Source: Paraspadella gotoi
Taxonomy: Eukaryota > Animalia > Chaetognatha
Assembly: GCA_051294375.1 (NCBI GenBank)
Contig: CM119263.1
Location: 22,780,833-22,844,832, forward strand
Direction: 5' to 3'
DNA length: 64,000 nt
Numbering within the stretch: the first letter of the stretch is position 1; every line of letters starts with the position of its first letter. Below are positions 1 through 48,299 of the stretch, piece after piece. The position numbers were made by a program, and so were the translations under genes. The notes below the pieces were generated by a model, which saw nothing but the letters and a program-made list of their open reading frames with translations, was not told the DNA's origin and made no database searches.

Positions 1-3000
1 AAGCTTCCGAGGCCAACCTCGCTCAGGTCCAGGGGCAAATGAGGGGAAAAGATAAAGGAGAATTTAGTTAAGGACATATATTCAATTTTTAGCAAATTTA
101 AAAAAGAAAAGAAAAAAATAGATAATTAACGTTTAATTTACGACGCAGGTATCACGAATCAAGACCCAATTGGCCGCCCAATACGAAGAGGCACGCGCTC
201 AGTACGAGGAAGAGGCCAAGCAACGCAATGCCCTCGTAGTTCAGTTCCGTAACCTGCAACAAGAAAACGACGGCCTCCACGGATCGCTCAAGGATGTTGA
301 AGAGCAGAAGGCGATGTTACAGGTACAAATAACGTGACTTTTTTTTTAACATCATAGGGAAACCATTACAGAAAACTGCTTGTTTATAAATTAATATTAA
401 TTTAATTTGTTAAAACTTTTGTTTTGCACTCCAATTTAAGGGAACCGTCTCTAAATTGAGCAATGATCTTCAAGCCATGAAGATCAAGTACGAGGCGGAG
501 TTGACCACGCGAGCTGAAGAATACGAGGACATGAAGAGAAAGTTGAGCATTCAGCTCCAGGAGACCGAGGAAGCCTACAATGGCGCCATGGCCAAAGTTT
601 CCAACCTGGAGAAAGTGCGCATTCGTATGGCCAGCGAAATCGACGCTCTTGCAGCTGACCTCGACAACGTGAGTTATACTACATCACCGAAATTATTAAT
701 GGAATAATCAATGTAGATTTAGTTTCTAATTATTAAAAATTACAATCGTTAATTTCAGCGAGTCGTAAGTATTTTTTTTTATAGGAGTACCAAAAAATGA
801 AAACTTTATCAATACTAGTTATAGATATTCCCGCTGTTTCTTGTCTTCCCATTTAGTCAAACAATGTCTTTTGACTCTTTTGACCCATACAGTTAGCCTA
901 CCCTCGTGACTTATTGCTGTTTTCAGATACAACTGTTGAACCATTCATTCATTCATTCTAACCATATTTTAATGAGCCACACTAATTTTTTTATTCCCCG
1001 AAAAGTATGCAAGCGAATCTAGTTTTCGCAATCGAAATCTCTTTTTCCTCATTCCTCAGCCATACTTTTCGTTGTCGTCACACCCAAAAGTTCTCAGAGA
1101 ACCATCGTCCCCCGTTCGTCTCAAAGTTTTATCTCTGATAGAATGTAGCTGAAGGGACTAAGTGAATAGCAATGTTTTTTTAAGGTCACTAATAGTCTAA
1201 TGTTACATTTCCTACCCCAATATTTGAACGTTTTCCTACATCACACGATCAATCGATGCTACGAAACAACAACAACATCGAAAACCGCAGGCCAACGCGA
1301 CGATTGATGGCATGTTAAAAAAGGAGAAGCAGATGCAGCGCACTATCGACGAGGTAAACATGAAGCTGCGTGACCTGCAGAACGAATTAGAGTCGTCTCA
1401 GCGCGAATACAAGAAGCTCCACGGCGAGCATTTCGCTCTGCGTAAGTCTCACGAAGACGCGCTGGAGGCGATCGAGAGCCTGCGACGGGACCTCAAGCAT
1501 GCCCAAGACGAACTGGCCGAAGCCGGAGAGATGGTCCGAACCAAGGATATGCAGATCGCCGAGCTCTACAAGGTCAAGCAGCGGCTCGAGTTCGAGAAGG
1601 AAGAGCTCCATAACGTCATCGCCGAGCTCGAGGAGAAGTTCAAGGCCGAGTCGGACAAAGTGGCCAAGCTCCAGATTGAAATCCAAAACATCCGCGTCTC
1701 GATGGAGAAGACCCTCCGCGCCAAGGAAGAGGAGCTGGAGAAGATGAGGCGCGACCTTCTGCGAGAGATGGAGCAGATCCAAGCCAACTTGGAGATCGAG
1801 ATCAAGCTGAAGAATGACGCCCTCAAGATCAAAAAGAAACTGGAGATGGAGTACAAAGAATTGGAATACACCCTGGAAACTGCCAACAAGACGATCGCTG
1901 ACTACCTACGCGAGATCAAAAAGTTGGAAGCGGAGATTGCCAACTTTCAGTCAGCGCTCGACGCGGAGTCGGCGCAGAAGGAGGAGGCCCGCAATCAGTT
2001 GTCCATCTCCCAGAAGAAGCTGTCGCAAGCCTATGCGGAGCTGGAGGAGTTGAGGGCCGTGCTGGACGCGACCACTCGCTCCAAGCAGTCGCTCGAACAA
2101 GAGCTAAGCGAGACCCAGGACCGGATCAACGATCTAAACATGCAGTTGGGTTCCGTGGCAAGCGCAAAGAGAAAGATCGAGGGCGACTACGCCTCGCTCA
2201 CCAGGTACGGAAGATGGACATTTTATTTTAAAAACACTTTCACTCAATAAATTTACTTAGATATGAAGCTATTTTATTTAACTACGGATTGTGCATTCAA
2301 TGAGTCAAAACCAGACTTTTCCCGTAATGCAGCGAGTACGAGGAAGCAATGCTTCGCCTACGTACGCAAGAGGAGACCCTGATGAAGGCCATGAACGACG
2401 CGGGCCGATTGGCAGACGAACTGCGTGCAGAGCAAGAGCACAGCGCACAGATCGAGGGACTCCGCAAGGGGCTGGAATGTCAAGTGCGCGACCTTCAAAC
2501 TTCTCTCGAGGAAGCCGAAGCTATCGCCCTTAGATCCGGGAAGAAACTTGTCGCCAAGATGGAAGCTCGAGTAAGATAAATGAATGTAATACCTAATGTT
2601 ACCCTTTGAGAGAATATTTTTTCACTTTTTACAGATTCGCGATCTAGAAAACGACCTAAACACTGAAGCAAAACGGCATTCCGAAACCATGAACAACGCC
2701 ATTCGTCACGAGAGGCGCGCAAAAGAACTTGAACTTCAAACCGAGGAAGATCAAAAGAACATGAAGCGACTACAAGAGATGGTGGAAAAACTAAGCAACA
2801 AAGTCAAACTTTATAAACGCAAAGTTGAAGAAGCGGTAAGCCGATATGCAACTATATATATACACGGATATATATCATATATATATATTATACACGGATT
2901 TCAAATGAGAGGGAAATGAAAAGATTAAGTGCTGTTGCTTTAAATTTAATTTAAGTTTAATTGGCAACAACGATTTATTAAATAATAAAATCGGGCATGT

Positions 3001-9085: not shown

Positions 9086-12000
9086 TCAGCCTTCTTCCTT
9101 TGGCGGCGTAAACCATCCTGAAAAAAATTATTTTCATACATAACGGATTCAGTTAAATTTAATAAAAGTAAATTGGCTTCTAAATTTTTATTTTTTCAAA
9201 AGAAATACCGATTACCCCTCTTATAGTATTTTGTATTATTAAATTAATAAATAGAAAGATATTAAATTGTTGCTGTTCTGAACTAATTCAAAAAGTTGCA
9301 TTGAAAAACTATTTAATACATGAAGAAAAAAAGAAATTTTTTTGAAAGAACTTAAAAAAGTGTTCAATTTTGGCTGGCCTTAATGGGTATTAGACCTTTC
9401 CAAATATGAAAAGTTTTGAAATAAAAAAACGAGTATTGTGTAAAATGTGCCCATACATCATATGAATTTTTGGAACATTTTTTTTAAAAAACAAATTTAC
9501 AGTAAATAGTAAAAAATGGTAAAAAATTGACTTTTTGCTAAATATCTTTTAAAGCTTTATTTCTAGAAGGACGAAATTTAAATCTGGTAAAGCAGAAAAT
9601 ATTGACTATGTTACATACCTCGCATTATAAATTAAGTTAGTTTTTTACTAAGTAAAATTTTTTTAAAAGCCTATTGTTTTAAGCAATTTTTGATAAAATT
9701 TTTAAAAAATGATATTTTTAACAATGTTCGTAAAATATTTTTTTAACAAAAATTATTTAAAAAAAATCATTTTCCTTAATAATTATTTTTATTAAATAGG
9801 TTTGAACTTGGTTAAAGGGAAAAAGGGAATGCACTTTATTAAGAGTAAATAAAAAAATAGTAAAATCTGATTTGACAATGGGTCACTTTAATATCTTATC
9901 TCACCAGGTCATTGAAGTTTTTTAAAATTTTTATTATTTTATAATAGAATTATGACTAAAATAAGGTAGTTTTTTAATTTTTTTATAGGAGAAAAACAGT
10001 TTTATACATAATTTTTTTATATAAAATAAAAAGAAAATTGACAAAAGCGATTAAATAATTAAAAATTGACAAAATGAGACAAAAAGAGTAAAATTAATAA
10101 AATTTTAAAAGTATAATGATTTTGACAGACGTTACTATCAAAGAAAATGAAAAAATCCGATGCGATAACGATTAATTGTAATAATAATTGATTGATGTAA
10201 TAATAATTGATTGATTGATGTAATAATAATTGATTGATTGATGTAATAATAATTGATTGATTGATGTAATAATGATTGATTTAATAATAATTGATTGATT
10301 GATGTAATAATAATTGATTGATATAATTTAAAAATTTTTGCTACGCTAGTATCCACTGCCTATCATAAGCCTGTCTATGAAAAAACCGAAAAAGCAGGAG
10401 TGGGTTATGGTAAGATAACAGCATCTATTGTATAAAAAGTTTTTGACCCTAATTTTACAGAAAAAAAAAAAGCTCCAGAAGTGAGCATATTCCGTAGTCA
10501 TCCTGAGGTTCCATCTTAATATTTTCTTATGGTGATTCATAACTGGAATGGTATATGAGCACTAACCAAGGTTTTTATCATTATTCGACTGTTGTAATGT
10601 ATATCAAATAAATAAATAATTTTTTTAAGATTGAGCGATTTAACATTATTTTTTTGCTGCCTATGGACATGTAATTAATTTAAAATCCTTTAAAATTTTT
10701 TTTAAGCATAACAGTATAGTAAATTCAATTATTTATGTAGTAATATCCTAAAAAAATTATAAAATTTCAAAATAATTTTTTTTATTTAAAGAACAGATTT
10801 GGGTTTGCCATAAAAAAACTTTTATAAAATATGTTATATTATATTTTAATGTTTAAAAACGAAAAAAAATGACAAACGTTTTAACATGTATAAGTTTTTA
10901 GTACAGAGAATTAAAAAATCCTGAATTTTTATCTTTTTTCCAGTTTTAAATGCTGAAGACGACAAATTTTTAATAACATGTTTGTATTTTTGATTTAACT
11001 TTTTATGAAGAATGTGAATCTTTGTTAAAGTTTAAATTTTTTAAAAAATTTACTATTTTATAAAAATATTACAACAATTATATTGTATTTTACTATAGTG
11101 TTCCCAAGACTATATTAACAAAATATTTTTTATTCAAGTTAATCATACTATGTCACATTTAAATATCCTTATTCGATCATTCAAATAGATTTTTTGTTCT
11201 TGAGTGCTCCACTCTATTATGCAAATTAATAAAAATATTTCAGTTGACCTAATTATTCCAGTTGACCTGTAGTCGGCATTGCCTAGGTTCACCCCGCCTA
11301 TAAGCATGACACCTTTAGTCCTGACCCGGTGGCTCATTGAGTAAAGCCATCAGCTCATGACCACTAGGTACCGGGTTCAATCCCAACCCGGTACCTACCC
11401 TGTGGGAAGCGTGAGGACGGCCGTAAGCCGCCTTGGGGGCGTGGCAACCCCTCAAGCCTGGTTCCAAGCCCAGGACCCGTTCCATGGCTACTAAAAGGGG
11501 GTTATAGAAGTTACGGATAGTCATCTTCAGCCCACTTAGCGCCTTATCCACACTGGTGAGCCCATCCTGTCGAGCGTATTCCAACCTTCTGATTCCAGGC
11601 CCATGGACGTGCTGAAGATTGCTCCCCTCCCTCCACTGGAAGCAGTGCAGGGTGGGTTACAATCTGGGGGGCATGTAGTCGGGCATTGCCTAGGTTCACC
11701 CCGCCTATAAGCATGACACCTTTAGTCCTGACCGGTGGCTCATTGAGTAAAGCCATCAGCTCATGACCACTAGGTACCGGGTTCAATCCCAACCCGGTAC
11801 CTACCCTGTGGGAAGCGTGAGGACGGCCGTAAGCAGCCTTGGGGGCGTGGCAACCCCTCAAGCCTGGTTCCAAGCCCAGGACCCGTTCCATGGCTACTAA
11901 AGGGGGTTATAGAAGTTACGGATAGTCATCTTCAGCCCACTGAGCGCCTTATCCACAGACCAAATAAAGCATGTTGATCAAATTATGCAAAATTAGCAAA

Positions 12001-15000
12001 TTATGCAAGTTGACCAAATTATGCAAGTTGTATTGGCTTAGCTACTGGTAATGATTGAAAGATAATTGATTTATAGGTTTTTTCATAGATTTATAAGAAG
12101 TCTGTTATGATATGATTTGTTATGATCTTTTAATATCACAAATTGAAAATCAGAAAAAATAACCGTGATTTATCATCGGATTAGCTTATTACCGCTTAAT
12201 TATCGTAGGCAGATCTGACGTTGTTTGCTCAAACTTGTACTATCAAATGTGGCATAAATTTTATCTATTGGCGTATAGTTTAAGTATCAGTTGATTTTGT
12301 AAAAAGATTTATAGCTAACCTAATTAAAAAACAAACAAATTTTATGATTTCTTTAAAAAGAAAAAAATATAAGTAAAATATATTGTAACAATAATACATA
12401 AATAAAGAGTAAGACCACAATAATTAAATTTAAGTTACTAAAGGAAAAAAGTATAGTACATAAGAATAATCCCTCAATTTTAATTTTCCGAATTAAAAAA
12501 CCTTTTTTCCTTTACCGTTTTTCTCGTGGATTGCTACAAGGGATTTGAAGGATGCCTGGGCACGGGCAAGGCTGTATTGGCTTTTGGCTCCAAAAGTAAT
12601 CCGAGCTTTTCCTTTAACCAGCGTAGCAGCAATTTGTGTAATAACGGATTCTATGCTGTAGGCGCTGCTCCAACCCTTAAAATTTAACAGGAGAAAGTCA
12701 AAATAACCAGAAAAAAAGATAATAGAGAGAAGACTACATCTACCTTACGCTATAATACTTTTTCATCAATTTATGACTAAGTTTAACAAGACAGTAGCAA
12801 GCATCGACTAAAAGAATAATTTTTTTACTCGCCTGCTTTGTGAGAAGCTCCATACAAATGGCGCCACCAGCAAGTACATATCCACCGCTTACAACTGGGC
12901 TGATCACACGACAGAAAGGGGGTTCAAAGGGAAAGTTTTCTTTGAAAGTCATGTTAAGTAGAAGGGAATCTTTCCCTTCTTTCTCCTTAAACAAGGCGAG
13001 ATCGTTGTAGAGCGCACTATCTGGGTCGAAACTGAAAAAAAAAAACACAAAAAACCAAGATTATATTTTCATTTTAAGCTATTATCAAATTCTCATGTTA
13101 TATTTTAATTATGAATTTTATTCTATGTTTTTATGATTAATTATATACAAAAGTTTTATTATTAACCAAACTACCTTAACTCTAACCCACCCTTAATTAC
13201 CCTTAACCTTAAGGCCCCCAATTTTTGAATTTAAACCGAAACTTTTTGATAAGGTAATGTTATGGCAGCGAAAATAACTAAACGTATGGTGGACTAAAAT
13301 CCACCAACCGTCTCATCAGCGGCCATTGGTGCCAAAGCAAGTCATTCGCCTCCCAACCCAAAGGTCCGGGGTTCTAGCCCGGTGGTCGCTCTGGCAGTAA
13401 GAGGGACGGGGCGCTTAACCCGCCTGTAACATAGTGTTACAGCCTGATCCGAAGCTCAGGGACTGCTTATATTGAACGGTTCTGTCACTAACACATAATA
13501 ATTTACTGTCTCTTCAAAACGTTCACATATTATTTAAAGAATAAAAAATCGAAATTTTGGACGTATTTCTTTATACGAAAGACATAATTTTAAAAATATT
13601 TTTACAATTTCTGTCTAAAGTTTATTAAATTTTTTATTTAAAATTTCAAAAATTTTTTCAGTTATCTATTATGAACAAAATATTTGTTTTATCTTTTATT
13701 ATACATACTATATATGAAATTGGTACAACCAAATAAAAATTATATATGGGTAAATTATGGTTTAATGTTGACTACAACTTTTTGTTCTCTCTAATTTACA
13801 AAATCAACACAAAAAAGACACGTCAGTTCGTGGTGTTGCGATCCAGCGCCTCCTGGCGGACGCCCACATCAGTAACACCTGAACAACTTCGACATCAATC
13901 TGCGCATGTCAGTTCAGGCAGAGCGCGCCCCTTGGTATCCCCGCCAAATTGGCGCCGTGAACTCATATGATGCCATTACAACCTAGATCACCCGAGTGTG
14001 AGATACACAAAAAAGCTGGTAAACAGAGATGTTTTGGTCCAATAAGCCGCGTCAGACGTTTGTCAAAAATAGGCTCAGGAATGCCTTGACAGCTGTGGAA
14101 CGCAAATTGATAAGGTTACGATCTCTTTAATTTCTCTTTAATCCACAACCGTTCATCAGCGGCCATTTGGTGCGGAGCAAGTCATTCGCCTCCCAACCAA
14201 AGGTGTTACAGCCTGCATCCGCAACCTCAGGGACTGCTTTATATTGAACGGTCTTCTGGTCACTCCTAACGTAACAATAATTAGCTGTCTATTCTATCAC
14301 AAGTCAGTACTATTTATTATATAAGCTTTAAAACAGGGATATTGACAGGCGTCATATGGCTCCGAGACATGTTTTTTCCAGTTTTGCTTAATTTTTAGCA
14401 AATTTTTATAAAAAAATACTTCGCTTTTAGAATGAATCAATAATTTATTAACAAACTAATATTCTTCTGTTTAAAATTTTAACAAAATACATACGTATTA
14501 CTACGCGTTGTCTTGGGTGCAGGGAATCACTCTCGCTCGAGGGAACCGAAACAAAACGGGGGCGGAAAAAAAAGGATTGAAATTAGTATTTATATTGTAC
14601 AATGTACATTTTCCCGTCATTAATGAAGATATACCTGTACAATCTCATATTCCACTCGTAAAGCGAATCGTTAACTAATTCCACAGTGAAAATGTTTTTT
14701 TTGTAAGATTCTGATTTAAAGATATCTTTCAACTCCTTCATTAGCCTACAAAACAAAATTAATGCAAGATTAATGATTATTAATGATTATATATTTATTT
14801 AATGCTTTTAAAGCAGTAATGATGAAGTAACAGGAAACTACTAATACTACCAATCTGTCATTATGCCATAATTTATGGTGGACCAATATCCACCAATCGT
14901 TTATCAGCGGCCTTGGTCCAGGAGGCAAGTCATTTACCTCCCAACCCAAAGGACCGGGGTTCGAGCCCGGTGGCCGCCTAGCAGTTAAGAGGGACGAGGC

Positions 15001-17945
15001 GCTTAACCGGCCTGTAACACGGTGTCACAGCCTGATCGCAGCTCAGGGACTGCTTCTATTGAACGGTTCTGTCACGAACTCATTATTTCTGTCTCTGAAC
15101 CATGTCGATTGTGTAATGGATGGGAGACTATTATAATATTAATAATAATGTCTTCGAAAAAAGGCATACCTGTCAGTTCCTGAACGGAACCGGACACAGA
15201 TCCTCGTAAATAGTCTTGGCGTTGGGTCTGTTTTAATTTATCAAGAATTCCAGCATTTTCTTCATCAATACCTTCGTCCTTTCACCTAATAGAGGTGATT
15301 ATTGGTTATCAACTAAATAATAATATATATATTTATCTTAAAAAATTAGCTTCACAACACATGACCATAGACAGACGTATATGTCTTACCTTTTTCTCTT
15401 CCTCTTCCATTTCATAATGGAAAGCATCTTCCTCTTCAGCGTCCATCTCATCTTCAGAGGTTTCGTTCCACTTTCCACTCGCGATCCGTCATCTCCTCTG
15501 TCATAACCTGGAAAATATGACAACTGAATATGTTATAAGAAAGAAAATAAAATCGCCAAACGAATTTAGAAATTTCATTGCCAGCTGCGGAAATTATTTT
15601 CAATTCGTTTGGTAAGGATTTGTCTACAAATGTAACCTAAGTTTCTCTCTCCCTTTAAAATAAATCCCAGCTTGAACAAATAGCTGTTTCTTGAAGGCTC
15701 AAGCTTTTTTTATACAGACAGAATAATAATAGTATAGTTCCCGATGATTCTAACAGACCCTGTGCAGAAAAAACCTAAAAAAGAACCGCGCGCTCAATTC
15801 ATTCACTGATATAAAAAAAGAATAATATAATATATTTGCTTTGGAAAGTTCTCGCGCAGAAGATTTATTCTTGATCGTAACGCTCTTAGAAAAATCATGT
15901 TTTCTACTGACTCTTAAACCTAGAAAATTCCGTGATGCACGAGTTACTCAACTAAATTTGGTAAAAAATTTTTAAAGGGTGCTGTCCAGTAATGTTTACA
16001 CAGTTTGTTCTATTGATGCGCACTATAGAGTTGATACAGGTTTGTGACGTATAAAATGTGTATCTTGCAAAAATCGGGCCATCCGTTTAAGAGCAGAGAT
16101 CTTTTAAAATGAAATACTCTACCAGAAAGCTGAACAAAAAAAAATCTGATAGATATTTTATAATACTTTTATTAAAAATGAAAAAAAATTACACTGGACA
16201 TCCCGAGGGATAGCTGGATAACTGGATTACCCCAAATCTTTAAATAATAATGTTAAGGTTATAAAAACATACGATGAAAGACAAGTCCATGATTCTGAAG
16301 CTTTTATAAGGATTTCAAATGAGAGTTAAATGAAATGATCTCAAACTGTCGTTAAATTATCTGATAAAACAACTTCAGATTTTTCAAAAAATGTTTCAAT
16401 TGTATAAAAAGACGACTCCCTTAAGTATTAGATCGGGGAATACTTATTGTACTCTGCACTAGCATCAAAATACAAGGAGATGAATTTTATGAAATTGGTA
16501 CAACCAATATAAAAATTATCCATTCATTTAATAAATAAGCTATCTTGCCCCTGACTTTTGACAGGCTTTGGTTGTTTAAAACCTCCATCACTATTACAAG
16601 ATAATGACATAGCAATTTTTAATTTTTTTAAATTTTTTAAAAAATGTCTGGAATTTAAAGTTATGAAGTGGCGAATTTTTTTTGCACAGGACTGTACTTC
16701 GTTTCCCAACGCTACGTTCAGAATAAATCAGGGTTGGCATTAAAAAACCCACCCAAAAAAACCAAAAAAACCCAGCTAAAAATTTAAAAATTACCTAATT
16801 TTTTTAATATGAAACATTAAATTGTTGAAACAAAAATTTAAATCATATAAGATCTATTATTTTTATAAAGTTTAATATATAATTTAATGATAAAAAATAA
16901 CCCTAAACGTATGTTTTACATGTTTACTATCAGTATCACTTTCGTTGCTGGCTTCTGTACCATTTTCCTTATATTAAGTAATTCTAATCGTGAATCGCAA
17001 ATTATGTTAAGAGCAACACAATAATCAGTATATTTTTATATATTTTTATCAGTAATCACTTAAGAAGTATAAATATTTTAAATTTGTATATTAAAAAGAA
17101 ATAATATGACAGTCTGCTATCTATAATTTAAAAAAAAACCAAAAAAACCAAAAAAACCCAGGTTTTTGCCAACCCAGGAATAATTTCTACGTACAAGTAC
17201 GTTGCGCTATTTAATTTATAACCTTGCCCTTGAGCTCCACGGGGTCTTGAGGAATGTCCGCTAGGTCCTGGGCAGGATTCGTCTAATCTTGAAAGCTCTT
17301 CGGGGTGCGGCAGGCCGACTGATTTGCATAATTCATTTATCAGCAATTTCACTTGACGAGTAATCTGAAAAACGCATTTTCAACTTAAAGTAGTATTTTT
17401 AGACCAAGACACACTTGAGACTAAATGCAAAAAGTTAAAGTAAAACCAACCCTAAAATTTTCAGGAGATGTTTCTTGAAGCTTCGATAAGGCCGAGGAAA
17501 TCTGCACGTCGTCAGCATCTGAGTACCACATCGGTGGCATTTGGGGATAGGTTTCCTAAATGTAAGTAATTAACATTTTCGAACAGTGACCAACTTTTCT
17601 ATTACAAATATCCAAACTTATTTAAAGATTATTTTAAAATTGTATTCCAGGGATAATAGGAAGTTTTAATAACATAAAAATTCCATTTTCATAAGCTCAG
17701 TGGTTAAAAAGTCATTGAAAAAATTATTGATCGCTCTTTTGTTGCTAGATATGATATTAAAAAAAAGTATCATTACTTACTATGATGTTAGCATGAATAT
17801 CGTTTCTCTCTCCCTTTTTCCCAATAAATCTGCAAGTTATTTCATCGACAGAAGCAGAGATTATCTGGAATCGTGCGTGATTTCGGGGGAAGAGGCCCTC
17901 AAGAAGTTTGATATCTTGCTTCAGCGTTTGGAAACAAGCCATCAT
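9086..17945 (-). CDS. UBE2Q: Ubiquitin-conjugating enzyme E2 Q (RWD + UBC domains)
   Basis: Exons (minus): 17945-17781, 17555-17451, 17364-17223, 15507-15390, 15285-15170, 14745-14635, 13031-12833, 12675-12516, 9117-9086. Diagnostic sequences: [82 protein letters not shown] (catalytic Cys), [14 protein letters not shown]. Single-base indels appear in the two exons at 15.2-15.5 kb. Confidence 0.93.
11299..11397 (+). promoter_or_regulatory. tRNA-derived (Met-like) Pol III promoter in the family A LTR
   Basis: TATAA at 11299, 24 nt before a tRNA-like start at 11323. A-box-like TGGCTCATTGAG (11330), CT-CAT-GA loop (CAT at 11356), B box GGTTCAATCCC (11374). Repeated in the 3' LTR. No TTTT on the sense strand of the whole 690-bp element. 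Confidence 0.75.
11402..11480 (+). ncRNA. Twister ribozyme, type P5 (family A, 5' LTR)
   Basis: P5 GUGGG/CCCGU; AA; P2 G(C)GU/GCC; conserved GA (11413-14); T1 GGA/UCC; U^AA with predicted cut at 11424/11425; GCC forming T2 with L4 GC; P3 UUGGGGG/CCCUCAA; P4 CCUGG/CCAGG; L4 UUCCAAGC. Aligns position by position with the Osa-1-4 twister core (UAA-P2-GCC...G-P4-UCCCAAGC-P4...P2-GA-GGG). Confidence 0.85.
11808..11886 (+). ncRNA. Twister ribozyme, type P5 (family A, 3' LTR)
   Basis: Same as the 5' copy except P2 GCC>GCA. Predicted cut at 11830/11831, 406 nt after the first site. Confidence 0.8.
13285..13516 (+). mobile_element. Family B solo LTR (tRNA-Gly-like head + twister)
   Basis: TATGG...TCTTCA, 232 bp, with 5-bp TSD AAACG (13280-13284 and 13517-13521). 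The tRNA-like domain at 13319-13389 has acceptor stem GCGGCCA/TGGTCGC, TCGCCT-CCC-A and T-arm CCGGG-GTTCTAG-CCCGG. Confidence 0.85.
13393..13467 (+). ncRNA. Twister ribozyme, type P5 (family B)
   Basis: P5 GGCAGU/ACUGCU; P2 G(A)GG/CCC; GA; T1 CGG/CCG; U^AA cut at 13416/13417; GCC; P3 UGUAACA/UGUUACA; P4 CCUGA/UCAGG; L4 UCCGAAGC. Confidence 0.88.
14140..14296 (+). mobile_element. Family B LTR, internally deleted
   Basis: Matches the family B 5' and 3' parts. A deletion between two GGT words (~14202) removes the B box and the 5' half of the twister. Confidence 0.75.
14874..15098 (+). mobile_element. Family B solo LTR, diverged
   Basis: Full-length match with canonical B box GGTTCGAGCCC and A-box-like TGGTCCAGGAGG. 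The twister carries substitutions. No clear TSD. Confidence 0.82.
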
Positions 17946-23400: not shown

Positions 23401-26390
23401 ATTAATATATTTTTTTTTAAATTGAATGTAGTAATAAATATTTTTATATATCGGTTCTACAAATTATATTACGTAATTAGTACATAATTAGTATCTGTTA
23501 GTTTTAAGCAATGCCAGTCAATTTATATTTTTAAGAAAACTAGCTACAATTTTGCTCCTTTTATGAAAATACTGCTTTTTTATTAAAACAAGTTCAATTC
23601 AGAATTATATCATGTCAGGGTTAGAGTCGTCAAACTTATTCTAAATACGAATGATAAAAGAAAAACCTATCTATTTTTTAAATTTAGTTATTTTTCAATA
23701 TTGAGTTACGGAAAGAAACTAACTTCTTATAATTATTAAAATTCATTAAAAATTAAGAAACTTATTAAAATATATTTTTAGCTACGTTATGGCTGTTAAT
23801 TCTATTTGTTTAGGTTTGAATCTTGATGCACGCTTTAAACTTAATGTTATTCAGAATCACGGCCAAAGCTTCCATTTTTTCCCTATAGTGTAGACAGTAG
23901 ATGTTAGTTTGCATGCTCCCAACGTATTTAACAAACAACCTCTTTAATCCTCGGGCACTTCATCCATGCTTTACTGTATGTCTAGACATAAATAACGTTC
24001 ATTTTTCACCCCCCGGCTTTGGTTCTGGGAATCCCCCTTATTTTCCTTCAGGAATCCAAAGTTCTCAAGCAGGAATATCCCCTTCACAATCTCAGCTTCC
24101 TTTTGGAATTTCTGCATATCCTGGACTCTCGGAAATCCCTCCTGCTCCTCCTCCGCCTACACAAGGAGGGATACGTGCTCTATCTCCGCCCGGCGTGATA
24201 CCTCCTGCTCCACCAGCACCACCTGGGGGGAAACCTCCTGCACCACCACCACCGCCACCACCACCACCGCCTATTCCATCTGGTGCAATTCCTCCTGCGC
24301 CTCCTCCTCCACCGCTTGGGGGAGTTCCGCGCGCACCTCCTCCACCTCCTGGGGGAGTTCCGCGCGCACCTCCTCCACCTCCTGGGGGAATTCCGCGCGC
24401 ACCTCCTCCACCTCCACCGCCTGGGGGAGTTCCTCGCGCACCTCCCCCGCCACCACCACCGGGAGGAATTCCTCGTGCGCCTCCTCCACCTCCGCCTCCC
24501 GGGGGAATCCCAGCCGCCCCTCCCACGCCCAGCGGAATACCTCCACCACCTCCTCCCCCTGGAGTTTTACACCCGCGACTGATTCGAGGGCCAGGAGCTC
24601 CGTTGACGGTTCCACGAAAGCCAGTAATTACCCCCGCGGTACCAATGAAGGGTTTACACTGGAACAAAATTCAGATTCCAGTGAGCGATCCATCAAAAAA
24701 CGTCTTGTGGACGACTATAGAAGAACCAGATCTCGAGGCTGAAGAGTTTGCCACTTTGTTTGGTCGCAGAGCCGCGGTTGCTATAAAGAAAAGAGAAGTC
24801 AAAGCCGAGGATAAGAAGGAAGCCTCACAGGCCAAGCAATTCAAAAAGATTCTGGATTCAAAACGATCTCAAGCAGTCGGTATTCTCATTCAAAGTCTTC
24901 GCATTACCGTGCCAATGGTGGAAGAGGCCGTTTTTCAACTTGATACTTCCATCCTCGACATCGAGGCTTTGCAGTCCCTTTTTGACATCAGAGCGACGAA
25001 GGAAGAGTTAGAAATGATTAGGCGACATCTCAATGAAAAAGACGCACAGGAACCTCTGGACAAGCCAGAACAGTTTGTGTGGGACTTGGCTCAAATTAAC
25101 CATTTTCAAGAGAGGGTTTCCTGTTTTGTTTTTCAATCCAGCTTCCCGGAAAAGATAAACGAGGTTTCGAAAAAGTTGGACAACCTCAAAATGACCATGG
25201 ACGCTTTGATGAAATCGGAAAATGTCAAAAAGATTTTGGGCATTATTTTAGCCTTAGGAAATTATATGAACGGTGGGAACGCACAAAAGGGTCAGGCAGA
25301 CGGGTTTAACTTGGACATTCTTCCGAAATTAAAGGACGTAAAAAGCTCTGACAATTCTTCCAATTTATTAAATTATGTTGTCGTACAATACTTACAAAAG
25401 TATGATAAAGAAAACATGGGTACTGAAAAAGCGATGTTACCATTTCCTGACCATTCCGATCTGAGGCAGGCTTCGCTTGTCAGCTTTGACGACTTAGGGA
25501 ATGAGATGCTTGGTATAGGTCGACAATTAAAGGATTGCAAAGACAAGATGGAGCGAGTTTTCGACGAGTCAACCGAGTCAAACCTTGAACCGTTCAAAGA
25601 ACTAATGGTAGCTTTCGTTTCTAAGGCCACTCAAGAGCTCAAAGAACAAACGGAAAATCTCACAGAAAGTCGAGAAAAGTTTCGCGAAATGGTGTCGGCT
25701 TTCTGTTTTTCCGTTGGGAAAGGAAAAACCGTTGAACCGAAGGATTTCTTCGACGTTTGGGTCCCGTTCGCTTCTGACTTTAAGGACTTGTGGAAACGGG
25801 AGCAACAAAAGGCAGTCAAGAGAATCCAAGCGGAAGCCAGGGCGAAGGTTAAAGAGAAGCGAGAGGAAAAGCGAACGAGCATAGTAACGTCCCAGAAACG
25901 AGCCGGCGGCCTCAAAGACCGCTTGCTCAAGAAGATGGATCGTCGTCTTAGCCTCCCCACGGATACGAAAGGAGGTCAAGATGAACTCGCTTCGGTTTTC
26001 GCTCGGAAGGCAGCGACACGAAAATTGTCGTTGGAGCCAGGATCGGACACGCCTACGTCTTCGACCGGAGGTCTGTCCCCGGCAGTATCCCCTGCTTCGT
26101 CGACACCATCGTCTCCTCGGGCGAAGACGTGGAATGCGGCGGAGCAACCCACCTCGAACGTTAATATCGCGAGCAAAGAGAATGACACGAATACGGTCAT
26201 GGAATCACCAATTGTCGAAACGTGCGAATTTGAGTCTTGCGAGTATGTTGATAGTTGTGAGTTTATCGAGAAGAAAGAGCAAGACGAGGAAGAAAAACAA
26301 TCTCAGGAGGAGGAAAGGGGATACAGCCTTGGATGGATCGCTCCCATTGGCGGGTCAAGAAAATTATTTGACGATGATGATTATTTTTAA
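20472..26390 (+). CDS. FMN: Formin, Cappuccino/FMN subfamily (DEP-like, FH1, FH2, FSI tail)
   Basis: Exons 20472-20564, 20814-21379, 21450-21571, 21644-22398, 22474-22635, 22714-23194 and 24052-26390 with consistent phases. MGN start as in FMN2. DEP-like segment FEGAMLVNW...QFCTHLMAAGVL. Poly-Pro FH1 at ~24140-24570. FH2 motifs MKGLHWNKI, KILDSKRSQAVGI, LALGNYMNGG..GQADGF, LPKLKDVKS. FSI-like GGLKDRL. The start may extend upstream (open frame from the acceptor at ~20172). Confidence 0.9.
20628..20792. mobile_element. MITE in formin intron
   Basis: Perfect 25-bp inverted repeat AATTTTACTTTCGCCGACCGGGGTT (20628-20652 / 20768-20792) around an AT-rich core with AACCCTAA words. Confidence 0.7.
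24300..24560 (+). repeat. Coding minisatellite of the formin FH1 (GG[V/I]PRAPPPPP units, 33-39 bp)
   Basis: Tandem units visible in DNA and protein. Confidence 0.85.
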
Positions 26391-27080: not shown

Positions 27081-30000
27081 CTGCGCCGGAGCCTCCTCCG
27101 CCTACCGCGTTGAGCAATGGCCGATCTTCTTACGCCAAATCAAAGCACGGGTCTTCTTTCATTCCGGTTAAGGAACCGATCATCTTCCCTTCATTGGGAA
27201 ATTTTACCGGATCTCGCTCTGTCGATGCCGACGTTGCGCGTCCAGTCGAACCGACTCTACATACGGCAACCTCACACTTCAAGAATATAACCCAGCCAAA
27301 TAGTTTCGACTGCTGTACCTCCGTAGTTTTCTCGGAAGCAAGCTCTCGTCAGAAACCCTCACCGAGAATGAAGAGGGAACAGAGTTTGAGCTGTCAAGGA
27401 AACATCGCTATAGGAAAGTCTTTGAAAGTTCCGGGAAGGGAAAATACTCATGGGCGTTTAAACGGAGAAAACAAGGATGTGAAGGTAAAATAAGAGATGG
27501 AAAATTAAAATTCTTCATGTGGAAACATCCGCTGAAAAGTATAAATATAAATATAAATTGTTAGTGGCAAAATTTTATATTTTTCACTATGTATCTTTTT
27601 AGTCACTTTTATTTCGCTTCTTACGAGAAAAATTAAATTACTCGAAATAGAAAAAAGAAAGAAGAAACATTTTAAAAAAAACTACCCTTAACCCTAACTA
27701 CATCTAACCCTCACCGCCCTTAACAATAATCACTAGTGTAAAGCAAAAGTTTGGAATCAAAATTTAGTAATATCTTAACAACTATTTAATTCGTAAATAT
27801 TATTAAATTTTTATCGTTGCAATCGACGATGGTCCCCATAGATGGCGTAGTCATTGTCGTCGTTGTCGGTGTTCCAAATTATAGATCGCTTTTTAGTCGG
27901 ATCTGCTTAACAGCAGATTCCGACTCTGTTCTCGATTCTTGGTTCGTTCTTTAGTGCAGCTCTCGAACCACTGCCGTCAAAATCCGCGGTACTTCAGGAA
28001 CTGGAGTCCAGACAAAGCCAAAAGGAGCTATGGCTCAAAGGCCCGGGAGGCCACCCCTTATACCTTCTTACAAATCAATATCAGGTACGTGACCGACAAA
28101 CATGAACCGCCTTACTTAAGTGTCGGTTTCTCTCATGAATTAGATTAATTTTCAAATTGCGGAAATAATATTGACTTAATATTATTGAGCATACGAGAGA
28201 GACAATGGGGGAAATAATCTGAAGCTTATACACGAGTTAATTTTGTTAAGTTCTTTCTGACAGAACAAAAATAAAGAGTTGTATTTGTTGTAACTTTGAT
28301 AGAATTTTTATCTTAAAAATAAAAGGTTTTAAAAAGTTGGGTTTGGTTCTTCAGACTAAAGTAGGTGTCGGGCAAAGCCGAAGTCAAAGCCTTTGACAAA
28401 GGCGAAAAGGAGCCTCTGGAAGAGACAGTGATAATTGTTGTGTTAGTGACAGAACCGTTCAATATAAGCAGTCCCTGAGCTTCGGATCAGGCTGTAACAC
28501 CATGTTACAGGCGGGTTAAGCGCCCCGTCCCTCTTAACTGCCAGACGACCACCGGGCTAGAACCCCGGACCTTTGGGTTGGGAGGCGAATGACTTGCCTC
28601 CGGCACCAATGGCCGCTGATGAGCGGTTGGTGGATTTCAGTCCACCATACTCTGCTATTTTTTGCGACCCAAGTTGAGCTTTTGTTTATTTTCTATTTGA
28701 CCACTACTACTACTACTACTACTACTACGACCAGTACTAGTTCTATATGCACAACTGACAAAACTTCTTTAAAAATTCTAAAAGTTTTGTTTTTTATTTG
28801 TTTTTATTATATATTTTATATTATATATAAAAATTAATATTTAGTAATAAACTTATAAATTTAGCCAATTTTTTAAATTTTTATTATTTCCTTTTTTCCA
28901 TTTAATTTTTTTTTTTGTTCATACATATCGCATTTCTCAAATAGCTATGATTTTTTTTTCAAGATTTTTTAAAAAATACCTTGAGTTTTTTAAATTCCAT
29001 TACGGACTAAAAAAGTCAGCAAGTAGGCATAATTTGGGTTAATTTTACTTTCTATAAGGCAACAGAGGAACTAAGAGGGCCACCGAAAAGTTTCTAATCT
29101 TGTGCAAAGACAGGCCATGAGCTTACCCTCTAATGTATGTTCTTACAGAAAAAAGCGGTGCAATAAGTTNNNNNNNNNNTCTAGTTGTAAATTGATTACA
29201 ATAAATTACAATGACGATGGTATAAAATTTTGTCACCGTTTTAAGCTACTTTTAGCCTGATTTTTTACATATTTTGATTATCTGTGCGATCTTACTGATT
29301 AAAAACAGTCATGGTAAAAAAAGCCTATGTTCTTTCGAATATAAGGCATATGTTAGTAATCAGACAGAGTAAAAATTTTGGTCACAAGATAAAGAATTTT
29401 GCATGAGAAGAGCGTGAATAAAATTTTCCACGAGACTGTGCACCGCGACATAATTCATCTGCTATCATTTTTATGACTTCATGAGTAAATTACTTGTCAC
29501 GGGTTTTCTTTAATTAGGTTCCTCAGGAAACAAGCCAGTACCTTTGGCTCAGCATCACACATCCAACAATGATTGGACTGACGTTATGCTCGCTACTGCT
29601 GCCTCTGACTTTGCCGGAATTCCCCAAACTCAAGTCGATGATCATCAAAACTCGATCAACAGTTATTATTTTACAGATCAATCGCAACCTGTAAGTCAAC
29701 GCATGTCACTTCGAAAAAAAATGTTAGTTAGTAAAAACCAATATTAACATGAGGTCATGATGATCCAGGCTAAAAACAGTGCGGCGCCGTCTAACGGCCA
29801 TTTGGCTCAATTTACATCACCTTCACTTCATCAAAATCGCCTTAAACTAGCACCCGTTAATGATACACAACCTTCAAGCTCTAACAACAACAACAACAAC
29901 AGGGGTAGAGCCTCTTCTCGTCAAAGGTACTTGTTCTCCTAAGCTGCTCTTTCAGTTAAATGAAACGACTCATAAAAAAAATTTAGGCGAGCAAGCGGAA

Positions 30001-30744: not shown

Positions 30745-31894
30745 TATATGTTTAAAATTAAGAAATAATTATTTAAATATAACCATTAGTAGCAGCTGTA
30801 GTTGCGCGTTGCATGATAATATTTTACCTTTAGAAATAATATTAAGCAAAGAGATTAATTAAGAATATTCAACCAACCAAAACACCCTATTTAATCTATA
30901 GTACGTTTCAAAAACATTCAACCAGGCAAAAATGTTAAAACTTTTCAAAGACTACAACATAAATGTTTACAAAAATATTAAAAAAGTTAGCTATTGATTT
31001 ATAAATAATTTTCTTCAGTTTCGAAAAAAATGATGTCACTGTTAAGTTTAGTTTTATGAATGAATTTATTAAATTAAATTATGAAATAAAGTTTATTAAT
31101 AATTAATAAACAGACAGAAATCTAACCTTGTGTTGTGGAGATGCGCCCTCTATTTCCCGAAGACAACACTAACGTCCCCATCCCAACAGATAAATAATAT
31201 TATATTTAAATATTTAACACAAAAAATATTTTAACAAATAAATAAAATTATAAATAATAATTATTTTTAAATCTAAAAAAATAAAGATAGTGAAACAAGT
31301 AATTTTGCAACAACCTTAGGGTGCAATAGTTAAGTGACCGAAAAAATATTATATTTGAAACCGTACAATCAAAATATTCGAGCGGAAATTATTTTCCGTT
31401 TATTTAAAGGTATTATTATCATGTTGCGTAGAAGAGAATAACATTTTGTTTTATTAAACTCATTTAACTTAATATTTAAATGAAAAAATCGGAATAATTG
31501 AATTCTGGGCATTAATAACTAATTAAGTAACTTCCATTAAAATAGCTGTTTCGTTCAGGCTTATTTATTTTGGCAGTTTTTACTCTGGTTTTTCGAGTTT
31601 TCTCAGTATATTGTTTTTATAAAATCTGTTATAGTCAATATTGCAGCCGGCTTCATTAACTTAGCGAAGGTGTTGATTCATTCTGATGTTTAAGTTAATA
31701 ATATTGATATTTTAAACCGAGTTACAACGTCACCAAAGAGTTAATTGAGTTGGTAAAAGATGTTCAACTGTAGTCTGTATGTATGTTTCTCAAAAAAAAT
31801 TTTGTTGGAGGAATTCTTGAATTCAGAAGTTGCGCCACTTTCGGTTAGAAACAAAATTTCAAACCAAGCTCTTAAAATATATGTAACTTGTTTA

Positions 31895-32544
31895 ATAGAG
31901 CGTTCAAAGATAACAAAATATAAGATATTAAATTCCATTCATAATTATTTTATTGCAATAAGGTCTGAAAAATTTGATGGTGATGATCATTTTTTTGTAT
32001 AATTTCATCTTTCTAGTCGGAAATGACGATTTTTAATATATATAAAATGCTAATAAAATAGCGCAAACATTATAAGTTATAATAATCATTATAATCATTC
32101 AAACTATTCCTTTAAGTAATGAAAAATAAAATTATTAAAATTTTAAACCAAAAATGGTAAAATTAAACAAAAATTAAACATTAAAAGAATTTATTAAAAT
32201 GGATTTTACTTTATCTCAACTTTTTGCAAGGAATTCAAATCTGGTTTTAAAATTTAAAATTTTTTTACTTTAGCTTATTTTTTACTAACACTAACAAGCT
32301 GTTAATTAAATATAAAATTTGTAAATAAAATTACCAAAATATTTTTATGGGTATTTATTTTCATATTATGTAAGCTACAACGTTTGCGCCATTTTAATAG
32401 CACCTTATATGCTTCAAAAATCGCCATTTCCGACAAAGAAGATGAAACTATACCATCATCATCGGATTCTTCAGACCATATTACATTAAAATAATAATTA
32501 ATGGAATTAAATATCTTATATTTTGTTATCTTTGAACGCTCTAT
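31895..32544. mobile_element. Non-autonomous DNA transposon with long (~180 bp) TIRs
   Basis: ATAGAGCGTTCAAAGATAACAAAATATAAGATAT... is inverted at 32544, with similarity extending to ~32070/32380. Flanked by a 6-bp direct repeat TGTTTA (31889-31894 and 32545-32550). Confidence 0.8.
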
Positions 32545-32894
32545 TGTTTAAGTATCATTTTCCCCTCTGTTTGGCAGAAGCTCTTTCCCCCTTTTGGATA
32601 AAAATGTTTTAGGTAGAAGCAAAGAAAATTGTTGTAAAACCTCTGTGATATGCTTTAATCCTGTGTATTTTATGTTCAATTTATTTATTACTAAATAGAA
32701 TCTAGATGAGCAAATTTCAGAATTTTAGTCACCCAATTTTTTTATTCTTATATTTTTGGTTGTTTTCCCTTGCCTTTGATATTTGTTATTTACCGATTAA
32801 AAATGAACCACTATGACTATGTTTACGAGCAGTAAATGTCCTGTTACGGGCAAGTTTTAGGTTGAATTTTCGGACAATGACTGAATGAGGAAAA

Positions 32895-33318: not shown

Positions 33319-33815
33319 TGTAGTCGGGCATAGCATAAATTCACCCCGCCTATAAGCATGATACCTTCAGTTTTGACCCGGTGGATCATTGAGTAAAGCC
33401 ATCAACTCATGACCATTAGGTACCGGGTTCAATCCCAACCCGGTAATTACCCTGCGGGAAGCGTGAGGATGGCTGTAAGCCGCCTTGGGGGCGTGGAAAA
33501 CCCTCAATCCTGGTTCCAAGCCCAGGACCCGTTCCATGGCTGCTAGAAGGGTTAAAAAAGTTGCGGATATTTATCTTCAGCCTACTTAGCACCTCATCCA
33601 CACTGGTGCGCCTATCCTATCCTGGAAGCAGTTCAGTCGTGACCCGGTGGCTCTTTGTGTAAAGCCATCAGCTCATTACCACTACGTACCGGGTTTAATC
33701 CAAACCCGGTACCACGGTGGAAAACCCTCAAGCCTGGTTCCAAGCCCAGGACCCGTTCCATGGGTTAAAGAAGTTGCGGATAGTCATCTTCAGCCCACTT
33801 AGCGCCTTATCCACA
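33319..33815 (+). mobile_element. Family A element, second independent insertion, internally deleted
   Basis: TGT...ACA ends with TSD GATA (33315-33318 and 33816-33819). 5' LTR 33319-33602, PBS-like TGGTGCGCCTA at 33604. Deletions remove most of the internal region and parts of the 3' LTR. The 5' twister at 33454-33532 has P5 GCGGG/CCCGU and a G>T change at 33508. Confidence 0.88.
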
Positions 33816-34632: not shown

Positions 34633-35896
34633 ACGACGAGAAACGTGAGAATTGAAGACGAGGAAAAGGACGACGACGTCGCGTTTGCGCCTCGGAGAAT
34701 CCACGACGTTGATGGTTGAGAACGCCGCTCAGACTTTTCGCGCAAGAAAACCCCGAAAAGATAACAATTGCGGATTATTTGTTTGGTGCTCAAAAAATGT
34801 TTTTCAATAAAAAGTTAACATGACGTATATCACGCGTCAGTTTTCGGAAATATTAAATAAGGTGAAAGGTCAGTAAAATAAATTATTATTATTAATATTA
34901 TTTTTTTTAGCAATCGAATGAATGATTTTTTAAAAAAATTTTGAAGCAATCGGAAGAATTTTTTTTCCTAGAAAAACTAGGTTTAATTAGTAAAATTGTA
35001 TTAACTTTTTTTAATGCTATGTCAGATTTTATTGATTCTTCCGTCCACTGAATATCCGCCATTGTTTAACAGTTTCTCAGAGACTATTATTAGCTATTAT
35101 TTATTTATTATTTACTAAATTTGTTTAGTTATCGCAGTGTTTATCTTTTAAGGCCAATAATTGTACAAAGTTCATGCGAACAGTAACTGTTTCCTATAGA
35201 AGCGTGTGGAGAACAACAGTCTGGCCCCAGCAAGAATTTAACTTAACAACACGTTTAACAATTAATTTATTAATTATGCAATAATAACCCTTCATTGTTG
35301 GATGATTGTCATTGATGCGATGATAGTAATTGATACAATGATAGTCATTTATTGATGATAATCATTTATTGGTGCGACGATCATCATTCATTAATGCAAT
35401 TATAAGGATTTATTGATGCGATAATAGTGAAATGCAATGATAATCGCTCAATGATGCGAGAGAGAGAGAGAGACGTAACAAATCAACAGAAACCTTAATA
35501 AATCAATTAAAGAATCTGTCAATCAAGAGAGAGAGAGAAAGAAACTTTAAAATTGAAAAAGAATTAAAATAAATGTGACCAGAGTGACTCTATTCCACTT
35601 GGACGATTCCATTGAAACTTTAAATCTTGCTCAATCACCCCATCCACTCACGAGTAATTGGCGTTCAAAGCTGAGAGACAGACAGACGGACGGACATCGA
35701 TTTTTTTGCATAATTTATCATAATTCGATGTACTGACATGATTTAAGTGACTTACCGACAAGATTTTGGGAACGGACCGACAAAGTGAATTATAGAGCCG
35801 CAATCTGCTGTAAGCTAAAAATTATTTAGGTGTCAGGGGTATATTGGTTTATTTGAATTTTATTCACTTTTAAAGGGGAGAAAAAATGCTATATTA

Positions 35897-37030
35897 TGGC
35901 AACAGCCGGTTCTAGTTGGTTGGCGACTTCGCCATGGCGATATCGCCAGGGCTTTGGCGATGTCGCCAGTCCCCCCACTGGCGACCTCGCCAGTGATAAA
36001 AGTAGCGAATATAATGAAAAGCGCAGCTAACACGGGGATGAACATCACCTTCAGGCTCCTCTCCCAACCCTAACCCTAAACCAAACCTCCCGTTCAACTC
36101 TGTGCCTCTCCCCTAACCCTAACCCGGGCCTGGGCCTCCCGTACATCTCCATGCCTCAACCCTAACCCTAACCGCCTTTGATGCATCAACCACGGGCCCC
36201 TCCCCAACCCTAACCCTAAACCAAGCCTTCCGTTCAACTCTGTGCCTCTCCTCTAACCCTAACCCAGGCCCAGCCTCCCGTACATCTCCGTGCCTTAACC
36301 CTAACCCTAACCGCCTTCGATGCATCAACCACGGGCCCCTCCCCCAACCCTAACCCTAAACTAAGCCTCCCGTTCAACTCCATGCCTCTCCCCTAACCCT
36401 AACCCAGGCCCAGCCTCCCGTACATCTCCGTGCCTCAACCCTAACCCTAACCGCCTTCGATGCATCAACCATGGGTCCCTCCCGCAACCCTAACCCTAAA
36501 CCAAGCCTCCCGTTCAACTCCATGCCTCTCCCCTAACCCTAAACCAGGCCCGGCCTCCCGTACATCTCCGTACCTCAACCCTAACCCTAATTGCCTTCGA
36601 TATATAACCACGGGCCTCTCTCCCAACCCTAACCCTAAATCGGGCCCAGGCCTCCCGTACATCTCCGTGCCTCAACCCTAACCCTAACGCGGGCCTCTTG
36701 GTCATCAAAAACACCCTCCCTACCCCTATTCCTAAAATTGACATTAATAATAAGCCTAAAATAAACTTAACTTAACTCAACCCTAACCCTAAACTACTCA
36801 ACCCTAACCCTAAACTACTCAACCCTAACCCTAACTACTACCAACTCAACCCTAACCCAACTCAACCCTAACCCTAATCTGAGTTTAGTTTAGGCGAAAT
36901 TGCCATAACTAGAACGCTAGATGTAGTTCACAGCTAAACCGCCAAATGGGGAGGGCGTGATGGCTAAGTCGCGATTTGGCGATTTCACACTGAACTACAT
37001 CTAGCGTTCTAGTTATGGCGATTTCGCCTC
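35897..37030. repeat. Repeat element with a 140-bp satellite built on (CCCTAA)2 telomere-like words and hairpin-forming ends
   Basis: Period 140 bp (CCCTAAA ending at 36080, 36220, 36360, 36500), ~4.5 units with three subunits each. TGGCGACTTCGCCA hairpin cluster at ~35921-35991. A ~38-bp-arm inverted repeat at ~36892-37028. Confidence 0.85.
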
Positions 37031-37097
37031 GATTGGTCGTTTTAACTAATTACATTTCAAAAAAGTAATTTTTTTTCATAAACTTAAACATCTACAT

Positions 37098-41576: not shown

Positions 41577-41624
<48 letters not shown>

Positions 41625-47896: not shown

Positions 47897-48299
47897 TGTG
47901 CGATAGTGCGTCCTAAGTGGGTCAAATGAAGTATGCCACTTACCCGTAACTTCTTTTTTATTAATCTGCTCCTTTTATGTGTAGCACATTTGGTACAGCG
48001 TCCTTGGCTTTGGATACCAGGCTTTTGTGAGGGTTGTTTATAGCCACGTCCCCAAATATTCGCGCTTATCTGCGTGTCTCAACGTCCTCATGTCTTTCCC
48101 ACAGGCGTATTTCTGTTACCGTGGTTTTGGGATTAAACCCTTGTATTCTAGTTTGAAGTGCATGAGCTTGGATGGCTTTTAATAACTCTAATGAGCCACC
48201 GCTGGTAAGGTACTGAATTTGGTGGTTCATGCTTATAGGCGGGTTGTGTGCATAATCCTAAGATGCGTATGCTTAATTTTTGATTTAATCCGACTTACA
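47897..48299 (-). mobile_element. Family A solo LTR (error-rich)
   Basis: Collinear reverse-complement blocks: CCTAAGTGGG, CCGTAACTTC, CCAGGCTT, CGTCCTCA, TTCCCACAGG, CATGAGCT, AATGAGCCACCG, CATGCTTATAGGCGGG, CCGACTTACA. Confidence 0.72.

Follow-up and report, generated by a model that had tools for sequence, protein, structure and literature searches.

In a 64,000-nucleotide stretch of the genome of the chaetognath Paraspadella gotoi (NCBI GenBank assembly GCA_051294375.1, contig CM119263.1, positions 22,780,833 to 22,844,832 of the forward strand; hereafter the window, numbered from its first letter) we analysed a 690-bp non-coding element at 11268-11957. It is a real mobile terminal-repeat retrotransposon in miniature (TRIM), and each of its two long terminal repeats (LTRs) contains a transfer RNA (tRNA)-type RNA polymerase III (Pol III) promoter pattern followed by a motif of the twister ribozyme type. 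We propose that it is a non-autonomous TRIM of the Helenus type that would spread as a retrozyme by means of a paired twister, and we give this whole chain a probability of about 0.58. The motif itself is a stunted variant of the twister; folding models predict that a lone copy is blocked, and it likely works as a pair.

Structure and dispersal of the element

Both LTRs have TG..CA ends and are 98.25% identical (285 bp versus 284 bp); they flank a 121-bp internal part with a primer binding site (PBS)-like sequence and a polypurine tract (PPT). The open reading frames overlapping the element are short and chance-like only. The following features were assigned to the element and its relatives in the window, together referred to as family 1:

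11264..11267, unstranded: left target-site duplication (TSD), GACC, lying in an AT-rich short tandem repeat that is multi-copy as well
11268..11552, + strand: 5' LTR, 285 bp
11330..11383, + strand: tRNA-type A box (11330) and B box (11374), 44 nt apart, by sequence pattern
11403..11479, + strand: twister-type motif, P5 permutation, from the Rfam alignment and parsed anatomy
11413..11434, + strand: rival 'off' hairpin of the predicted fold, burying the catalytic strands and placing the cut site in a 5-nt loop
11425..11830, + strand: predicted cut-to-cut monomer, 406 nt, derived from the two cut sites
11554..11567, + strand: PBS-like site beginning with TGG, 1 nt after the 5' LTR
11666..11671, + strand: short PPT (G6), 2 nt before the 3' LTR
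11674..11957, + strand: 3' LTR, 284 bp, with boxes at 11736 and 11780 and a second twister motif at 11809-11885 (predicted cut 11830/11831)
11958..11961, unstranded: right TSD, GACC
33319..33815, + strand: older, deleted copy with a GATA duplication and a whole 5' LTR
48083..48246, - strand: BLAST-matched part of a strongly decayed lone LTR, extending by eye to about 47895-48300

The original prediction had described a non-coding 690-bp element with TG..CA LTRs, PBS, PPT and a 4-bp TSD, and this description was confirmed, with GACC on both sides. It had also named the copy at 33319-33815 as a second insertion demonstrating integrase-type mobility. GATA does stand on both sides of this copy, in support of such an insertion, but the copy is decayed: between its two LTRs there are 20 mismatches and 3 gaps, no PPT is left, and the 3' LTR is short of its first ~46 nt and of the ribozyme's catalytic half. 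A 4-bp TSD was thus present in both two-LTR copies of the 64-kb window.

Public contigs confirmed that the LTR ends are constant between copies. Unrelated AT-rich flanks followed directly behind 11552 in 99 contigs of one sequencing run (X4) and 77 of another (X5), while 106 and 81 contigs, respectively, began at 11674 after unrelated flanks. Family 1 is therefore dispersed with fixed ends, seen at about 100 differing flanks. Matches to the element were found in 12 of the 14 listed rows of public sequencing runs, from four studies; summed contig depth is not read here as copy number. A scan of viral contigs gave no match. The AT-rich short tandem repeat hosting the element (11228-11267 and 11958-12030) is multi-copy in the runs too, and some contigs join across the element. 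A simple pattern search in six frames of the window detected no reverse-transcriptase motif. The PBS-like site may resemble the end of a tRNA-Ile, a resemblance that we do not put forward as a claim.

A twister-type motif in each LTR

Parsing of the motif in the 5' LTR gave the following anatomy (+ strand):

11403-06 and 11476-79: P5
11411-12 and 11427-28: 5' and 3' strands of P2
11413: catalytic G
11415-17: strand of the T1 pseudoknot
11418-23: palindrome in the place of P1
11424/11425: predicted cut
11430-31: T2 pseudoknot
11432-56: P3
11457-61 and 11470-74: P4
11462-69: L4

The catalytic G, the U^AA site, pseudoknots T1 and T2, P3, P4 and L4 are all in place, the strand order is conserved, and T1 and T2 are complementary in all copies. 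The core positions named beforehand, G11413 and U11424^A11425, agreed with this anatomy. Shuffling of the LTR yielded the loose twister anatomy in 0 of 20000 shuffles and the loose A plus B box pattern in 31 of 20000; these counts are not to be taken as probabilities.

A search of the window with Rfam at gathering level revealed no match. In a relaxed Rfam scan Twister-P5 (RF02684) had the lowest E-values, with 16.8 bits (E 0.81) at 11410-11473 and 16.0 bits (E 1.3) at 11816-11879, compared with a gathering cut-off of 37.6 bits. The alignment spans the full model in both LTRs, with a 22-nt insertion in P3 and a collapsed P1. In the place of P1 stands a 6-nt palindrome, which can form only 1 bp within one strand and 6 bp between two copies. 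P2 has two of three pairs, with a mismatch at the third position. The same scan returned no twister-sister, hammerhead or hepatitis delta virus (HDV) ribozyme match at E<=10, and a type-P1 reading via a G-rich stretch near 11495 was dismissed, because the stretch has no P2 partner next to it and lies in a variable region.

As natural controls we used P5-type twisters from 80 metagenome loci; 23 motif matches remained unparsed, 45 unique motifs were kept, and the 38 of these with a P1 of at least 4 bp were used. All six loci tested passed the Rfam gathering threshold. The parser demanded T1 complementarity and the search pattern fixed P4 and L4, so the split of the controls into 25 CCC/GGG and 13 UCC/GGA is partly built in. 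With a best BLAST match of 20 nt, none of the 80 loci is related to the element, and they serve as controls only. The option of a covariance model from these loci was dropped, the P3 alignment being out of register and the set biased towards the query. Some metagenome contigs hold several dispersed P5-type twisters (L069-L071 on Ga0194131_10012484, L054, L059, L046), and one contig of 9.9 kb has at least five, about 500-600 bp apart.

Conservation of the motif and a second repeat family

A variant survey over 2586 and 1186 contigs of two runs showed that between 11398 and 11497 substitutions reaching at least 2% of depth occur only at 11440, 11441, 11445 and 11448, all within the 9-nt P3 loop; the sole other variant at this level is a G inserted after 11472. 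The rough chance of such clustering is 7e-5 to 9e-4. The apparent confinement of variants to the P3 loop supports selection on the motif and does not decide it. Four small contigs of a biofilm run have a G-U pair of P3 changed to G-C.

A relaxed descriptor, applied after the structure had been drawn, revealed a second family in the window:

13285..13516, + strand: copy a, ~230 bp, lone-LTR-like, flanked by a 4-5-bp direct repeat
28419..28650, - strand: copy b, motif intact, with its own 4-5-bp flanking repeat, 94% identical to copy a
14874..15096, + strand: copy c, found by the descriptor, more decayed, L4 one base short
37097-37268 (-), 38700-38824 (+) and 14141-14294 (+): partial copies

Family 2 repeats begin with TA, and two copies have the 4-5-bp flanking repeats. 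In copy a, a tRNA-like head is followed by G13405, a palindrome at 13410-15, a predicted cut at 13416/13417 and L4 at 13448-55. The tRNA-like part of copy c gave a weak Rfam tRNA match (15.2 bits, E 7.7). In two of the decayed copies the catalytic half is missing from the motif. A further descriptor match at 42624 appeared chance-like and was set aside.

BLAST detected no similarity between families 1 and 2 beyond 7-11-nt words, and MAFFT aligned the cores of both in the register drawn beforehand. For the 17 named pairs, 99% of cells are paired across the families, and changes on both sides occur at 6 of the 17 (two of three in T1, one in P2, one in P4 and two of three in the palindrome). P3 and P5 of family 2 differ in sequence with their pairing kept, and the third P2 position is again mismatched. 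The unpaired catalytic positions (G-A, U-A-A and the A-A of L4) are invariant in both families. Hence the motif very probably has a twister origin and has been held under structural selection.

Predicted folding of single and paired motifs

Folding, which takes in neither pseudoknots nor Mg2+, predicted the off hairpin (-10.2 kcal/mol on its own) with a pair probability of 0.99 in the 5' LTR, 1.0 in the 33319 copy and 0.0 in the 3' LTR, which differs by one base. An analogous off hairpin is predicted for family 2. The palindrome forms a self-duplex of -10.7 kcal/mol in family 1 and -8.3 kcal/mol in family 2. With P2 and P4 enforced, a double twister reached -177.2 kcal/mol versus -166.1 kcal/mol for two monomers, and was thus 11.1 kcal/mol better. 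Including flanks, the twister-compatible fold of the single motif cost 7.0-10.6 kcal/mol, compared with up to 8.0 kcal/mol for natural motifs. In the predicted fold of the circular monomer the inner stem of the off hairpin spans the junction, which is left in the loop. A rod-like or unusually stable monomer was considered and is unsupported.

The original prediction had spoken of a complete type-P5 twister fold. This was overstated because of the departures in P1 and P2, the predicted rival hairpin and the cost of the twister-compatible fold. We lean towards pairing being needed for efficient cutting.

Promoter boxes and relation to Helenus

The distance of 44 nt between the A and B boxes is that found in tRNAs. 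From this spacing a Pol III start is predicted near 11323. ARAGORN reported no tRNA in the family 1 LTR, nor did Rfam at E<=10, so that of the A/B boxes claimed earlier the pattern and its spacing hold, but not a match to a tRNA.

TRIMs of this build have been described as Helenus (TRIMp3; Kojima 2024, PMC10886601): their LTR includes a tRNA-like segment, the TSD of the animal families is 4 bp long, and a Gypsy element has been proposed as their helper. That paper treats Helenus as multiply born, and Pol III transcription is there likewise a proposal from sequence. The combination of LTR, tRNA promoter, 4-bp TSD and proposed Gypsy dependence is therefore already known. Like Helenus, the element is a short non-coding two-LTR unit (Helenus: <1.3 kb) with A/B boxes in each LTR, PBS, PPT and a 4-bp TSD, and the PPTs of the Helenus consensuses consulted are short and G-rich, similar to its G6. 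In contrast, in most of the Helenus LTRs seen a T-run closes the LTR shortly behind the B box, whereas the LTR of our element continues for ~170 nt including the twister. Short-word searches and the part of the consensus file of PMC10886601 that was covered, without alignment, revealed no match indicating descent from a described Helenus family. The twister loop words are likewise absent from the file as searched, where words broken across lines would escape.

As far as the text of PMC10886601 was accessible it reports no ribozyme: 'twister' does not occur, and 'ribozyme' and 'hammerhead' occur once each, in a reference. Two of its gall wasp consensuses, Helenus-2_SyJa-LTR and Helenus-2_SyUm-LTR, show, by eye, a motif directly following the B box that resembles a type III hammerhead in its core, three stems and loop-loop pairing; the text at hand is silent on it. 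The motif stands at the place matching the twister of our element. Of 12 Helenus LTRs in one section of the consensus file (supplement part 9), the two without a run of four T behind the B box are, by eye, these hammerhead-bearing ones. A few short words are common to the 3' ends of the two wasp LTRs and of the element LTR, again by eye only. The new part is thus the ribozyme and not the LTR with Pol III boxes. The claim that LTR, tRNA promoter and twister form a new combination stands for the twister, for which no prior description was found, but not for the promoter-bearing LTR.

Comparison with known retrozymes and twisters

Plant LTR retrozymes (Cervera et al. 2016, PMC4918200, seen in part) resemble the element in being non-autonomous, with one self-cleaving motif per LTR, PBS, PPT and a 4-bp TSD, and in a cut-to-cut monomer that lacks an R region and in whose fold the ribozyme is blocked; the hammerhead is described there as being 'in a blocked conformation', and the missing R region is taken as an argument for the circle as template. 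Theirs are type III hammerheads in RNAs of 600-1000 nt, with cleavage and circles shown, whereas the element is from an animal, has a twister, a monomer of 406 nt and tRNA-type boxes, and is known from sequence alone. We found in it a predicted self-cleaving motif at the matching place in both LTRs, together with PBS, PPT and 4-bp TSD, and no type III hammerhead at E<=10. Since its ribozyme differs, we regard the element as retrozyme-like and not as a member of the retrozymes as defined.

Compared with RF02684, strand order, catalytic G, U^AA site, both pseudoknots, P4 and L4 are the same; the palindrome instead of P1, the mismatch at the third P2 position and the score below gathering are different. 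Among animal retroelements, the twister variants of Schistosoma Perere-3 (an RTE element; PMC8501958, in part) also have a weakened or missing P1. Perere-3 is, in contrast, an autonomous non-LTR element with a single ribozyme at its 5' end, a P1 formed with the flank, and neither LTR nor Pol III boxes. In the parts of these sources consulted, twisters are mentioned both from RTE elements, where they lie at the 5' end (PMC8501958, PMC7761336), and from viroid-like circles (bioRxiv 10.1101/2022.07.19.500677).

Metazoan non-LTR retrozymes and the hammerheads of Schistosoma that resemble short interspersed nuclear elements (PMC7761336, PMC6765202, bioRxiv 10.64898/2026.07.22.740005, each in part) likewise have one weak helix and dimer cutting, and in the Schistosoma repeats a Pol III promoter precedes the ribozyme. 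These are, however, tandem type I hammerheads without LTR, PBS or PPT and are linked to Penelope-like elements. That their weak-stem hammerheads cut as dimers (PMC7761336) is a precedent for the pairing proposed here. The July 2026 preprint (bioRxiv 10.64898/2026.07.22.740005), as far as available, sorts retrozymes into LTR elements of the plant type and non-LTR hammerhead elements of the animal type and leaves twisters unmentioned. Our literature search, with subscription papers, Dfam, Repbase and bioRxiv supplements outside its scope, revealed no twister in an LTR and no natural double twister.

Proposed mode of spread and alternatives

Transcription by Pol III would begin in the 5' LTR. The first helix of the motif is a six-base palindrome, so that pairing between the two repeats of a single transcript would be likely, and the two motifs would thereby form a double twister in which each active site combines the G-A strand of one LTR with the cut strand of the other. 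Cuts at 11424/11425 and 11830/11831 would free a 406-nt monomer, predicted to amount to one LTR and the internal part exactly, with no sequence repeated at its ends. By analogy with known systems, the monomer would then be ligated into a circle by a host RNA ligase, with the off hairpin splinting the ends in its loop, and the same hairpin would prevent self-cutting of the circle and of transcripts from lone LTRs. Because its inner stem is predicted to span the circle junction, a single hairpin could do both, silencing a lone motif and keeping the ends together for ligation. Primed by a tRNA, reverse transcription would run round the circle, with the copying done by a helper LTR element, and integration would be carried out by a Gypsy-type integrase, to which the 4-bp TSD points. 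That the motif cleaves in some form is probable by analogy with natural twisters; that a circle is the transposition template is, again by analogy, the option we favour, if with less assurance. The strictest version, an obligate double twister in which only the two-LTR transcript cuts, and in which silencing of the lone motif and splinting of the ends fall to one hairpin, is tentative, and we place it just short of an even chance.

Several observations weigh against this proposal. The Rfam scores of both motifs lie below the cut-off, and P2 was fully paired in 37 of the 38 metagenome controls (a P1 of at least 4 bp being present in 38 of the 45 unique motifs). With P2 enforced, the twister-compatible fold cost 6.1-12.8 kcal/mol in the three window copies versus 1.1-3.8 kcal/mol in 40 natural motifs, and the double twister lies 12.4 kcal/mol above the minimum fold. 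When P2 was not enforced the strand-swapped form showed no gain (-231.8 versus -232.7 kcal/mol), and the circular monomer folded no more stably than shuffles (z -1.0). Half of one ribozyme is lost in the 33319 copy. Variants near the edges of the analysed stretch are under-reported; little variation would be expected anywhere, because family 1 is young; and each covarying pair counts as one event, since the six aligned sequences represent two lineages. Neither a helper element nor a primer tRNA was identified, within the 64-kb window and with no host tRNA set compared.

The element might still be a retrozyme-like TRIM in which each twister acts singly, slowly or with the help of a protein, the palindrome being incidental. 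Even without P1 a twister can cleave, if inefficiently, and mismatches in P1 are tolerated in natural variants (PMC8501958, in part). In our models, opening of the core strands costs just 3.2-4.7 kcal/mol if P2 is not enforced, and the formation of P3 removes part of the off hairpin. We nevertheless consider single action unlikely: exactly six self-complementary bases replace P1 in two otherwise dissimilar families, with changes on both sides, and, once P2 is enforced, none of the 40 natural motifs is as costly to fold as a single motif here. It would be somewhat less probable again that the ribozyme only trims RNA ends in place of a Pol III terminator, with the motif of the 3' LTR cutting, that of the 5' LTR mostly not, and no circle formed; the product would be a linear RNA with a short R region (~11323-11424) that undergoes ordinary LTR reverse transcription. 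The element has no run of four T, whereas most of the Helenus LTRs examined have a run of four or more behind the B box, the two hammerhead-bearing ones being the exceptions among the 12 LTRs mentioned above. In the main copy, moreover, a strong off hairpin is predicted for the 5' LTR but is broken in the 3' LTR. Absence of such a run is, however, ordinary (2477 of 5000 shuffles), and the base that breaks the hairpin in the 3' LTR is missing from the list of family variants, so that the two LTRs of a copy are normally alike. A double twister, in contrast to this arrangement, would cut both sites.

The motif could also be an inactive twister relic, or one reused as a pairing or packaging signal, within an ordinary Helenus TRIM, and to this we assign the lowest probability of the three alternatives. 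The Rfam score below threshold, the mismatched P2 and the dominance of the rival hairpin are compatible with it, and short palindromes are dimerisation signals of the RNAs of LTR elements. Yet the unpaired catalytic positions are invariant across both families and T1 covaries on both sides, neither of which a packaging palindrome would need. Retrozyme-like spread through a paired twister is therefore the interpretation we retain. The earlier interpretation of the element as a retrozyme-like mobile TRIM is partly upheld by the Pol III-type boxes and by a twister-derived motif under structural constraint, but has to be qualified as regards the promoter part, already known, and the fold, which is non-canonical.

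Other features of the window

Several features of the window lie outside the two families. At 23901-26390 (+ strand) an uninterrupted frame of 829 aa contains formin FH1 and FH2 regions of the FMN/cappuccino type; the FH2 region is 66-71% identical to seven environmental proteins and at most 47% identical to those of named animals. By inspection, we take 1228-2919 (+ strand) to be coiled-coil exons resembling paramyosin or a myosin tail, and 12740-13060 (- strand) to be an exon resembling an E2Q-type ubiquitin-conjugating enzyme. A 3.3-kb duplication (40930-44246 and 55942-59230) shows 92% identity. The 650-bp stretch at 31894-32545 is self-complementary and possibly foldback- or miniature inverted-repeat transposable element-like. 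A GC-rich tandem repeat of ~140 bp lies in both orientations at 35881-38148, close to an N gap.

Implications

If the proposal is true, LTR retrozymes would no longer be confined to plants or to hammerheads but would include animal elements and twisters, and the twister would gain a second defined role in retrotransposition. A natural dimeric twister would then be the counterpart of the double hammerhead. Taken together with the hammerhead-bearing Helenus of wasps, the element would point to independent capture of differing ribozymes by Pol III TRIMs, and those with captured ribozymes would have switched to a circular RNA intermediate. One short RNA could serve to address both whether retrozyme circles are templates for LTR-type copying and how Pol III TRIMs set the ends of their RNAs. 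Standard Rfam thresholds miss this multi-copy ribozyme variant, and repeat libraries may hide others.

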